Assembly: GCF_003334815.1 (NCBI RefSeq)
Contig: NZ_QOWO01000001.1
Length of the DNA: 64,000 nucleotides
From: Escherichia coli
Lineage (GTDB): Bacteria; Pseudomonadota; Gammaproteobacteria; Enterobacterales; Enterobacteriaceae
Reading direction: 5' to 3' (one strand)
The first letter of the stretch is position 1, and every line of letters begins with the position of its first letter. Positions 37,342-40,622 of this stretch are shown in pieces. Position numbers and translations under genes: made by a program. The notes beneath the pieces were generated by a model. That model had not been told where the DNA came from, did no database searches, and was given only the letters and a program-made list of their open reading frames with translations.

Positions 37342-38676
37342 TTATTTCTGCAATTCCATACGTTTAATGTCGCCAACTACGAAGAGGTAGCAGACCATCG
37401 CCATCAGCGCTGAACATCCCACGAAAACCAGTGCTGCATTGAAGGAGTGCAGTTCACTTACCAGGTAGCCAATCACCAGTGGAGTGACAATGGAGGCAAC
37501 ATTGCCAAAGACGTTAAAGACGCCGCCGCAGAGGCCAACAATCTCTTTCGGCGCGGTGTCAGAAATCACCGGCCAGCCCAGCGCACCAAATCCTTTGCCA
37601 AAGAAAGCCAGCGCCATCAGCATGACCACCAGCGTGGTGTTGTTGGTGTAGTTACATAAGATGATGGTGGAAGCCAGCAACATTCCCAGCACAATCGGTA
37701 GCTTACGTGCCAGGGTCAGGGATAAACCGCGTTTGATCAGATAATCCGAGAAGACACCTCCCAGCACGCCGCCCGCAAAACCACACAGTGCTGGAATCGA
37801 GGCGACCAGACCCACTTTCAGAATCGACATGCCTTTTTCCTGCACCAGATAAATCGGGAACCAGGTGAGGAAGAACCAGGTGATGGTGTTGATAAAATAT
37901 TGTCCGAAAAATACGCCCAGCATCATGCGGTTAGAGAGCAATTGCTTGATGTAATGCAGTTTGGGTCCGCTTGCTGCCGCACTGCCCGGCTTTTTGTGGT
38001 CCATATCGACCACCGCGCCATTTTCAGAGATAAACTTCAGCTCTTCCGCAGACATACGTGGGTGATCTGTCGGGTTATGAATCAACTTGATCCACAGCGC
38101 CGTCAGCACAAAACCAATCACCCCCATAACGGTAAAGACGTGCTCCCAGCCCCAGGCGAAAGTCAGCCAGCCAAGCAGCGGCGAAAAGAGCGCCAGCGAG
38201 AAATATTGCGCCGAGTTAAAGATGGCGGAGGCAGTACCACGTTCTTTCGTCGGGAACCAGGCGGCGACAATTCGGGCGTTCGCCGGGAATGATGGCGCTT
38301 CCGAGAAGCCGAGCATAAAGCGCATAAAGAACATGGAGATCCCTGCCCAGGCCAGCGGGAACATATCAACAAAGCCTTGCAGGAAGGTGAATAGCGACCA
38401 GAAAAAGAGGCTGTAGGTGTAAACTTTTTTCGAGCCAAACTTATCAAGCAGCCAGCCGCCGGGGATTTGCATCAGCAAGTAGGCCCAGCCAAAAGCGGAG
38501 AAGATGTAACCCATCGAAACCGCACTTAACTGCAACTCTTTTGCCACTTCGGTACCAGCAATAGACAGCGTTGCACGATCGGCGTAGTTAACGGCGGTAA
38601 CAATAAAAATAATCAGTAATATTAAATAGCGGGTATGCACGCCTTTCTTTTTTTCGTCAACGGTGTCCAGAATCAT
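37342..38676 (-). CDS. garP: Galactarate/glucarate MFS transporter GarP (444 aa)
   Basis: 12-TM MFS protein; first gene of the garPLRK operon. Confidence 0.9.
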   Translation of the reverse strand: MILDTVDEKKKGVHTRYLILLIIFIVTAVNYADRATLSIAGTEVAKELQLSAVSMGYIFSAFGWAYLLMQIPGGWLLDKFGSKKVYTYSLFFWSLFTFLQGFVDMFPLAWAGISMFFMRFMLGFSEAPSFPANARIVAAWFPTKERGTASAIFNSAQYFSLALFSPLLGWLTFAWGWEHVFTVMGVIGFVLTALWIKLIHNPTDHPRMSAEELKFISENGAVVDMDHKKPGSAAASGPKLHYIKQLLSNRMMLGVFFGQYFINTITWFFLTWFPIYLVQEKGMSILKVGLVASIPALCGFAGGVLGGVFSDYLIKRGLSLTLARKLPIVLGMLLASTIILCNYTNNTTLVVMLMALAFFGKGFGALGWPVISDTAPKEIVGLCGGVFNVFGNVASIVTPLVIGYLVSELHSFNAALVFVGCSALMAMVCYLFVVGDIKRMELQK

Positions 38677-39050
38677 TTTATTTACCTCGGGTACTTATGC
38701 TGATTTTTATTATTATGGGGAAGGTGTTATTTATGAGTTTCATTTATGCCGTAACGACAATGAACTCGGGAATTAGTATAAGCAGCGCGAGAATAATAAT
38801 CATTGTGCAAATGCTAATTTAATTAATACTATTTAAATATTATTTTGAGCATATGCACATAAGGTTGCGCGCTAAAGCACAGATTTGCGCTTTACCTTAC
38901 CGGGCGGCACTGCAATCCCTGAAATGATTGACATTGATCACATTTCTGCGTTTAAACTCCTGACATTCTTATTTCACCCAATGAAGTCATTTATTTTTAA
39001 ATGAGACCAGGTCCTCATTTTAATAACCCCTGGCTGGAGAATATTGCACA

Positions 39051-40622
39051 ATGGCCAACATCGAAATCAGACAAGAAACGCCAACTGCGTTTTATATAAA
39101 AGTTCACGACACAGATAATGTGGCAATTATTGTTAATGATAATGGCCTGAAAGCAGGAACGCGTTTTCCGGATGGGCTGGAATTAATTGAACATATTCCC
39201 CAGGGGCATAAAGTCGCATTGCTGGACATTCCGGCTAATGGTGAAATTATTCGTTATGGCGAAGTGATTGGTTACGCCGTGCGTGCAATCCCACGCGGAA
39301 GCTGGATCGACGAATCAATGGTTGTACTACCGGAAGCGCCGCCGTTACACACGCTGCCACTGGCAACCAAAGTCCCGGAACCCTTACCGCCGCTGGAAGG
39401 ATACACCTTTGAGGGCTATCGCAATGCCGATGGCAGCGTGGGCACCAAAAACCTGCTCGGTATCACCACCAGCGTCCACTGTGTGGCAGGCGTGGTGGAC
39501 TATGTAGTAAAAATCATTGAACGCGATCTGCTACCGAAATACCCGAACGTCGATGGCGTGGTGGGGCTGAATCATTTGTACGGTTGTGGCGTGGCGATTA
39601 ACGCACCGGCGGCAGTTGTACCTATCCGTACCATTCACAATATTTCGCTGAATCCTAACTTTGGCGGCGAAGTAATGGTGATTGGCCTGGGTTGTGAAAA
39701 GTTGCAGCCTGAGCGCCTGCTGACTGGAACGGATGATGTGCAAGCTATTCCAGTAGAAAGCGCCAGCATTGTCAGTTTGCAGGATGAAAAGCATGTCGGT
39801 TTTCAGTCCATGGTCGAGGATATTTTGCAGATCGCCGAACGCCATCTACAAAAACTGAATCAACGGCAGCGAGAAACCTGCCCGGCTTCAGAACTGGTCG
39901 TTGGTATGCAGTGCGGTGGCAGCGATGCGTTTTCTGGTGTAACGGCAAACCCGGCGGTTGGCTATGCGTCTGATCTACTGGTGCGCTGCGGCGCAACGGT
40001 GATGTTTTCAGAAGTAACGGAAGTGCGTGACGCGATCCATCTGCTGACACCACGCGCAGTGAACGAAGAGGTCGGCAAACGGCTGCTGGAGGAGATGGAG
40101 TGGTACGATAACTATCTCAATATGGGAAAAACCGACCGCAGCGCCAACCCTTCGCCGGGCAACAAGAAAGGCGGTCTGGCAAACGTGGTAGAGAAGGCAC
40201 TCGGCTCCATTGCTAAATCGGGTAAAAGCGCAATTGTTGAAGTGCTGTCGCCCGGTCAACGCCCGACTAAACGCGGATTAATTTACGCCGCGACGCCAGC
40301 CAGCGATTTTGTCTGTGGCACGCAACAGGTGGCTTCGGGTATCACAGTGCAAGTGTTTACGACCGGTCGTGGTACGCCGTACGGCCTGATGGCGGTACCC
40401 GTCATTAAAATGGCAACCCGCACCGAGCTGGCGAACCGCTGGTTTGATTTAATGGATATTAATGCGGGCACCATCGCTACCGGCGAAGAAACTATTGAAG
40501 AGGTGGGCTGGAAGTTGTTCCACTTTATTCTCGACGTCGCCAGCGGGAAGAAGAAAACCTTCTCGGATCAATGGGGGCTGCATAACCAGCTGGCGGTGTT
40601 TAACCCGGCACCGGTGACCTGA
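39051..40622 (+). CDS. garD: Galactarate dehydratase GarD (523 aa)
   Basis: ATG at 39051 with a GGAGA Shine-Dalgarno; paralogous in sequence to UxaA in this window; divergent from garP. Confidence 0.95.

Follow-up and report, generated by a model that had tools for sequence, protein, structure and literature searches.

Class II CRP-dependent promoters of the galP1 type, which have an extended -10 element, are the closest described relatives of the garD promoter of Escherichia coli. In these promoters CRP binds at -41.5 and no -35 element can be recognised. The garD promoter shows the same layout, including a TG one base upstream of the -10 hexamer. It differs from the galP1 type because it also needs the activator CdaR and carries two more conserved boxes, at about -103 and -124. 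A short palindrome in the garD leader is no part of this promoter.

A second comparison is offered by the operators of the PucR/CdaR family (Bacillus subtilis PucR, Corynebacterium glutamicum GabR and E. coli CdaR). The box that we predict for CdaR, TGGGCATTTGCACAATG, is likewise an imperfect inverted repeat. It overlaps the -35 region, which is where a class II activator should bind. The leader palindrome and the TGGGCATTTGCACAATG box have neither sequence nor position in common.

The palindrome can also be compared to RNA hairpins. Like ompA-type stabilising stem-loops and RNA thermometers, it could form a small hairpin in a bacterial 5' leader. It differs in that it starts at +24 instead of at the 5' end, pairs with neither the Shine-Dalgarno sequence nor the start codon, and is not conserved. 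The hairpin is also much weaker than characterised 5' UTR stem-loops. Intrinsic terminators and attenuators consist of a hairpin and a following U-run, and the repeat is likewise followed by a few U residues (CUCAUUUUAAUAA). However, its stem has 7 bp with two G-C pairs, and the U-run is interrupted.

We regard the repeat as ordinary, because it is found in Escherichia only, occurs at chance level and is not the binding site of CdaR. On balance we favour the view that it is incidental and Escherichia-specific, with weak pairing, and that it lies where the garD 5' UTR is not conserved. It most likely has no dedicated regulatory role. Being a lineage-restricted, chance-level repeat in a non-conserved leader stretch, it is of little importance in itself. 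More useful, and of modest practical interest, are the by-products of the analysis: a base-level map of the garP-garD control region (start site, class II CRP site and extended -10 element), a set of rigidly spaced conserved boxes common to two divergent promoters, and a CdaR operator predicted by comparative genomics, TGGGCATTTGCACAATG, which precedes the -10 element by 20-21 nt.

Control elements of the divergent garP and garD promoters

The window is a stretch of 64 kb from an E. coli chromosome, and all positions refer to it unless stated otherwise. Its part from 38600 to 39150 is 100% identical to E. coli K-12 MG1655 (K-12 coordinate = window position + 3236231) and was found in 5420 of the 5426 complete E. 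coli genomes. The features of the region are listed in Table 1.

Table 1. Genes, promoter elements and repeat arms in and around the garP-garD intergenic region.
Feature	Position	Strand	Description
garP	37342-38676	minus	100% identical to E. coli K-12 MG1655
Predicted garP -10, TATACT	38775-38780	minus	plus-strand CAGTATAA (38774-38781) invariant in 30 genera
CdaR-type box TTAGCATTTGCACAATG	38801-38817	minus	predicted site; 20 nt upstream of garP -10
Box A TTGAGCATATGCACAT	38845-38860	plus	nearly invariant in 30 genera
Box B TGCGCGCTAAAGCACAGATTT	38866-38886	plus	highly conserved in 30 genera; predicted second CRP-type site
CRP site ATTGAcattgaTCACA	38927-38942	plus	class II; centre 38934.5, -41.5 from garD start
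garD extended -10, TG-a-CATTCT	38961-38969	plus	from conservation and the -10 element of PMC2760140
garD 5' untranslated leader	38976-39050	plus	75 nt, A/T-rich; from mapped start and 30-genus alignment
Left arm AAATGAG	38999-39005	plus	+24 to +30 of garD leader
Spacer/loop ACCAGGTC	39006-39013	plus	8 nt between the arms
Right arm CTCATTT	39014-39020	plus	+39 to +45 of garD leader
garD Shine-Dalgarno GGAG	39036-39039	plus	inside conserved CTGGAGAATAnTG..CAATG in all genera aligned
garD	39051-40622	plus	galactarate dehydratase gene; ATG at 39051; 100% identical to K-12 MG1655

The 5' end of the garD transcript has been placed at -75 from the start codon by 454 sequencing, with a frequency of two reads only, and tcctGACATTCTTAtttc was given as the -10 element of this start site (Mendoza-Vargas et al. 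2009, Table S1, PMC2760140). Converted to the window, this distance puts the start at 38976. The same position is predicted independently from the geometry of the -10 element and the CRP site. Hence, the repeat lies at +24 to +45, where it is transcribed and downstream of the promoter.

The extended -10 element sits in a conserved block, CTCCTGACATTCTTATTTCAC (38956-38976). When the garP-garD regions of 30 enterobacterial genera are aligned, CTCCTGACATTCTTATTTC (38956-38975) shows hardly any variation. Within the element itself, the bases fixed across genera, being nearly invariant, are only the TG, the A at hexamer position 2 and the T at position 6. Judging by the mapped start and this conservation, TGaCATTCT would be the element that drives garD.

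CRP binding upstream of this element has been measured. A footprint was obtained in vitro at K-12 position 3275166 with a Kd of 1.9 nM (PMC12871828), and a CRP ChIP-seq peak between garP and garD in ETEC covers the site (PMC4287617). The site is kept as GTGATCtnnATCACA across the genera of the alignment. Its centre is 41.5 bp from the mapped start, which is the distance (near -41.5) that defines a class II CRP-dependent promoter. Control of garD lies upstream of the leader, with a class II CRP site that has been shown experimentally.

An alternative layout, in which CTGACA (38960-38965) is a -35 element and CRP acts as a class I activator from -61.5, can be rejected. No genus has a -10 element 17 bp downstream of CTGACA, and the mapped start agrees with the extended -10 element instead.

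Direct repeats resembling TTCTTTATTTC, about 21 nt apart, occur in many genera at and just past the garD -10 element and start site (38966-38997). A similar sequence, TTCTTTATTTCTTCG, is found about 110 nt upstream of the E. coli gudP box (minus strand, about 8380-8400 of the gudP locus, L002).

The conserved blocks of the region are the garP -10 element, the garP box, box A, box B, the CRP site, the garD -10 block and the ribosome-binding region. From 38825 to 38970 the alignment is free of gaps, and the conserved blocks are therefore rigidly spaced. Boxes A and B stand at a fixed distance from both core promoters. They would act on garD from about -124 and -103, at a rigid distance from its core promoter, as putative sites for CdaR or CRP. 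For garP no start site was found in the literature searched; the predicted one is near 38768.

Box A contains a near-perfect 14-bp palindrome, TGAGCATATGCACA. The motif GCATWTGCACA occurs twice in the 64-kb window, both times in this region, compared to 0.14 expected occurrences. From this box it is 42 bp to the garP box, and relative to the garD start it is at about -124. We tentatively consider it a candidate for a further CdaR dimer site that would serve both promoters; the assignment is tentative because its score with the matrix of the CdaR-type box is only 3.6-4.8 bits. A class II CdaR-box promoter for garD just past box A can be rejected by inspection, since there is no acceptable -10 element at a 20-nt spacing.

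Box B is located at about -102.5 relative to the start of garD and at -105.5 relative to the predicted start of garP. TGTGCTTTAGCGCGCA has been reported as the second motif under the garP/garD CRP ChIP peak in ETEC (PMC4287617). Box B is a predicted second CRP-type site. A sigma-54 promoter was considered for the same sequence, and on inspection the GG-to-GC spacing is wrong.

A predicted CdaR box

The consensus TGGGCATTTGCACAATG was derived from 22 garP, garD and cdaR promoters of about a dozen genera. In all 22 promoters the box stands 20-21 nt before a TATACT-like -10 element. Outside E. coli, the loci are the upstream regions of garD, cdaR and garP (L049, L061-L082). This architecture is found at the garD promoters of Pectobacterium, Brenneria, Serratia, Sodalis, Rahnella, Enterobacillus, Dickeya, Pantoea, Erwinia and Gallibacterium; at the cdaR promoters of Yersinia, Serratia and Enterobacter pulveris (L049); and at the garP promoters of Sodalis, Rahnella and Brenneria.

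In E. coli the same 14-mer, GCATTTGCACAATG, is present near garP (38814-38801, minus strand) and upstream of cdaR, where the complete box occupies positions 2398-2414 of the cdaR locus (L003). At both genes the 14-mer is followed by 20 nt and then by TATACT or TATGCT. A weaker copy, TGTGTTGTTGCACGGTG, is found at gudP, 20 nt from TATACT (minus strand, about 8270-8290 of L002). The garP box is centred at about -42.5 from the predicted garP start. It has the top matrix score in the window, 18.6 bits, for a site that belonged to the training set.

The quasi-palindromic TGGGCATTTGCACAATG, with half-sites TGnGCA and TGCnCA, is probably the CdaR site, in a class II position near -42. Among the sequences considered it would be the best candidate for the CdaR operator, given its presence at garP, cdaR, gudP and the garD genes of more distant Enterobacterales. 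The literature searched contained no CdaR footprint, SELEX or ChIP data, so the box itself is a prediction.

CdaR together with PgudP is widely used as a biosensor for glucarate and glycerate. Furthermore, the gar and gud genes are reported to be important for enterobacterial growth in the inflamed gut. For both reasons a defined CdaR operator, here a predicted site, would be of practical use.

The garD promoters of some genera are organised differently. In Pectobacterium, Serratia, Dickeya, Pantoea and Erwinia, the divergent neighbour of garD is a gudP-like transporter gene with gudX/gudD homologues behind it, in place of garPLRK. The garD promoters of these five genera (L061-L082) have the box-plus-TATACT arrangement, and a CRP-like site precedes the box by about 62 bp. 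The class II CRP architecture of E. coli is absent from them.

The 3' core of the putative CdaR box, TTGCACAATG, overlaps the garD start codon (39044-39053). This overlap is confined to E. coli, E. whittamii and E. albertii, and other genera have CTGGACAATG. The sequence is polymorphic in strain C2 (ATAGTACAATG) and hence probably not constrained.

The inverted repeat in the garD leader

A sequence-only reading of the window had pointed out the near-palindrome AAATGAG-ACCAGGTC-CTCATTT upstream of garD and proposed that it is either an operator for CdaR or an RNA hairpin in the leader. The repeat is indeed there, at exactly 38999-39020. With the garD ATG at 39051, 30 nt separate its right arm from the start codon. 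A repeat search extends the arms to TTTAAATGAG and CTCATTTTAA, which are 10 nt long with 90% complementarity. A second inverted repeat, TCATTTA/TAAATGA (38987-39004), overlaps the first. The E. coli loop contains CCAGG (39007-39011), a Dcm recognition and methylation site.

Repeats of this kind are common. In 2000 dinucleotide-preserving shuffles of the A/T-rich, 374-bp garP-garD region, at least one perfect 7-bp inverted repeat with a 3-12-nt spacer was present in 26% of the shuffled sequences. The 64-kb window contains 126 such repeats, about 2 per kb. The garD-leader repeat is statistically not unusual and no more than expected by chance. The exact pattern of the repeat occurs once in the window, and the sole other match (30989) has 2 mismatches.

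That the repeat is the CdaR operator of garD is extremely improbable. Its proximity to a CdaR-activated gene and its form as an inverted repeat are what make the idea attractive, and cdaR is, as had been supposed, encoded elsewhere in the genome (K-12 182463-183620). However, when the motif was sought upstream of garP and gudP, as the sequence-only reading had suggested, it was absent from both. Neither AAATGAG nor CTCATTT nor the full pattern occurs upstream of gudP (L002), upstream of cdaR (L003) or in the rest of the garP-garD region. The repeat is also missing upstream of garD in Citrobacter, Salmonella, Enterobacter, Klebsiella, Kluyvera and others, although these genera keep the gar genes and the conserved promoter blocks.

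Position and sequence speak against a CdaR operator as well. CdaR is an activator, and an activator is not expected to bind within the transcribed region past the start site. The best 17-mer overlapping the repeat scores -2.0 bits on the matrix of the box common to 22 gar/cdaR promoters, compared to 18.6 bits for the garP box. The sequence-only reading had named two observations that together would refute its proposals, absence from other CdaR-regulated promoters and a location outside the transcribed leader. The first is what we find, while the second is not: the repeat lies within the leader.

It is also very unlikely that some dimeric regulator besides CdaR uses the repeat as a DNA operator. 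Such a regulator could act in Escherichia only, for example as a repressor or roadblock past the start, and the position of the repeat could suit a repressor. Conserved 7-bp inverted half-sites around a variable 8-bp spacer are also typical of dimer sites. Nevertheless, the repeat is at chance level, has no other mismatch-free copy in the 64-kb window and is absent at the other gar/gud promoters. Furthermore, CdaR is the only gar/gud-specific regulator named in the literature examined. We know of no E. coli regulator motif that matches the repeat. Finally, the right arm predates the palindrome in other genera (see below), which suggests that the symmetry arose by drift.

The other proposal, a hairpin in the leader RNA, is correct as far as location goes: the repeat is transcribed, and its 7-bp stem can form. 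The hairpin is weak, competes with other folds and is confined to one genus, and nothing points to a functional role. On its own, the repeat gives a stem of 7 bp and a loop of 8 nt at -5.5 kcal/mol; an equally good fold is reached by 14 of 200 shuffled sequences. Across the versions of three Escherichia species the hairpin has -5.5 to -7.7 kcal/mol, with z-scores of -1.5, -3.4 and -6.0 against shuffles of the same sequence, so that each version beats most of its shuffles.

In the context of the whole leader this stem is not the preferred structure. The best fold of the 75-nt leader contains the TCATTTA/TAAATGA hairpin and a pairing of CCAGG (39007-39011) with CCUGG (39029-39033) instead of the repeat stem. 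The leader together with the first 30 nt of coding sequence has no more structure than its shuffles (z = +0.84). The Shine-Dalgarno GGAG is paired with the repeat in none of the predicted folds.

Several kinds of leader RNA can be rejected for the repeat. An intrinsic terminator or attenuator does not fit, because a terminator scan of 38600-39150 gave 0 terminator-like sites and the stem has only two G-C pairs. Rfam yields no match to a known RNA family, the only hit being a chance miRNA match elsewhere in the region (E = 0.63). A structure conserved across genera was not seen either: when the leaders of about 45 relatives were folded from the conserved -10 element as far as the ATG, no common hairpin appeared and the z-scores were near 0. 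A leader that masks the ribosome-binding site does not fit, since the last base of the stem is at 39020 and GGAG is paired with it in none of the predicted folds. It is not a 5'-terminal stabilising stem-loop, because it begins at +24. A CsrA site and pairing with Spot 42 were considered by eye only and are unsupported.

A functional stem-loop that modestly tunes the stability or translation of garD mRNA in Escherichia, with the stem under selection and the loop free to change, is unlikely. It would agree with transcription of the repeat, with arms that stay the same in three species while the loops differ, and with folding energies better than those of most shuffles. On the other hand, the stem is weak and A/U-rich and gives way to the alternative pairings in the full-leader fold. 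It begins 23 nt from the 5' end, which rules out a 5'-terminal protective hairpin, and ends 16 nt before the Shine-Dalgarno sequence. The arms never change, hence there is no covariation. In addition, the stem-loop is missing in all other genera, whose leaders are unstructured, and matches no Rfam family.

In our preferred reading, an incidental repeat, the transcribed sequence can fold into a weak stem of 7 bp around a loop of 8 nt, and this would leave the ribosome-binding site accessible. Such a stem would be neither a terminator nor bound by CdaR.

Distribution of the repeat within and beyond Escherichia

Three species carry the repeat, namely E. coli, E. whittamii and E. albertii, all of them Escherichia. 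It is absent in about 27 other genera, in which the promoter blocks are conserved. The part of the leader that contains it (38978-39030) is A/T-rich sequence that cannot be aligned across the 30 genera. Some genera have a related ACTC(A/T)TTT stretch in place of the right arm without any left arm, for example ACTCATTTT in Pseudescherichia. The symmetry thus appears to have arisen within Escherichia from pre-existing sequence.

In the three species the arms are identical while the loops differ: ACCAGGTC in E. coli, ATTGAATT in E. whittamii and CCACGATA in E. albertii. Compared to E. coli, 6 of the 8 loop positions are changed in E. whittamii and 5 of 8 in E. albertii. The leader sequence that adjoins the left arm on its 5' side has diverged in E. 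albertii too.

Fixed arms around differing loops in three species are the pattern expected of a constrained stem or a dimer site. As the arms are invariant in the only three species that carry the element, covariation is not possible. With three species and no compensatory changes to go by, selection on the arms may have acted. Nevertheless, the evidence for a function is thin, because it comes from only three close species, lacks compensatory changes and concerns a palindrome whose right arm is older than the palindrome itself.

If selection did act, the repeat could be a genus-specific element gained in the ancestor of Escherichia, either a leader hairpin or a putative operator for a dimeric regulator, with the arms under purifying selection and the centre free to change or hypermutable. 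A hypermutable 8-nt centre is suggested by transitions at 6 of its 8 positions between E. coli and E. whittamii. We consider such an element distinctly unlikely. It would add a layer of control found only in Escherichia to galactarate catabolism, which published work has linked to growth in the inflamed or antibiotic-treated gut.

Of 5402 matching E. coli genomes, 5337 show at least 99% identity over the 32 nt around the repeat. This is about the level of ordinary E. coli diversity. The alleles of K-12, ST131 EC958, C2 and 2013C-4465 have the same loop and differ only outside the repeat. The allele of E. whittamii has no full-length, high-identity match in the 5426 E. coli genomes.

The loop of E. 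whittamii stands out against its surroundings. In the rest of the 374-bp region the sequences of E. coli and E. whittamii differ by only about 4%, yet the two loops (39006-39013 and positions 3956-3963 of the E. whittamii locus, L004) have six differences, all of them transitions. Compared to about 4% elsewhere, this looks like a local burst of mutations or a replacement.

The intergenic region has also been a target of IS1, which inserted independently in at least three E. coli genomes (one of them Ecol_AZ147). In strain MY1-8 (L088), IS1 follows position 39016, inside the right arm of the repeat. In strain 2018-166 (L087), positions 38872-39001 are replaced, with IS1 present. The CRP site, the -10 element and the start site are deleted there, and hence the garD promoter is lost in that strain.
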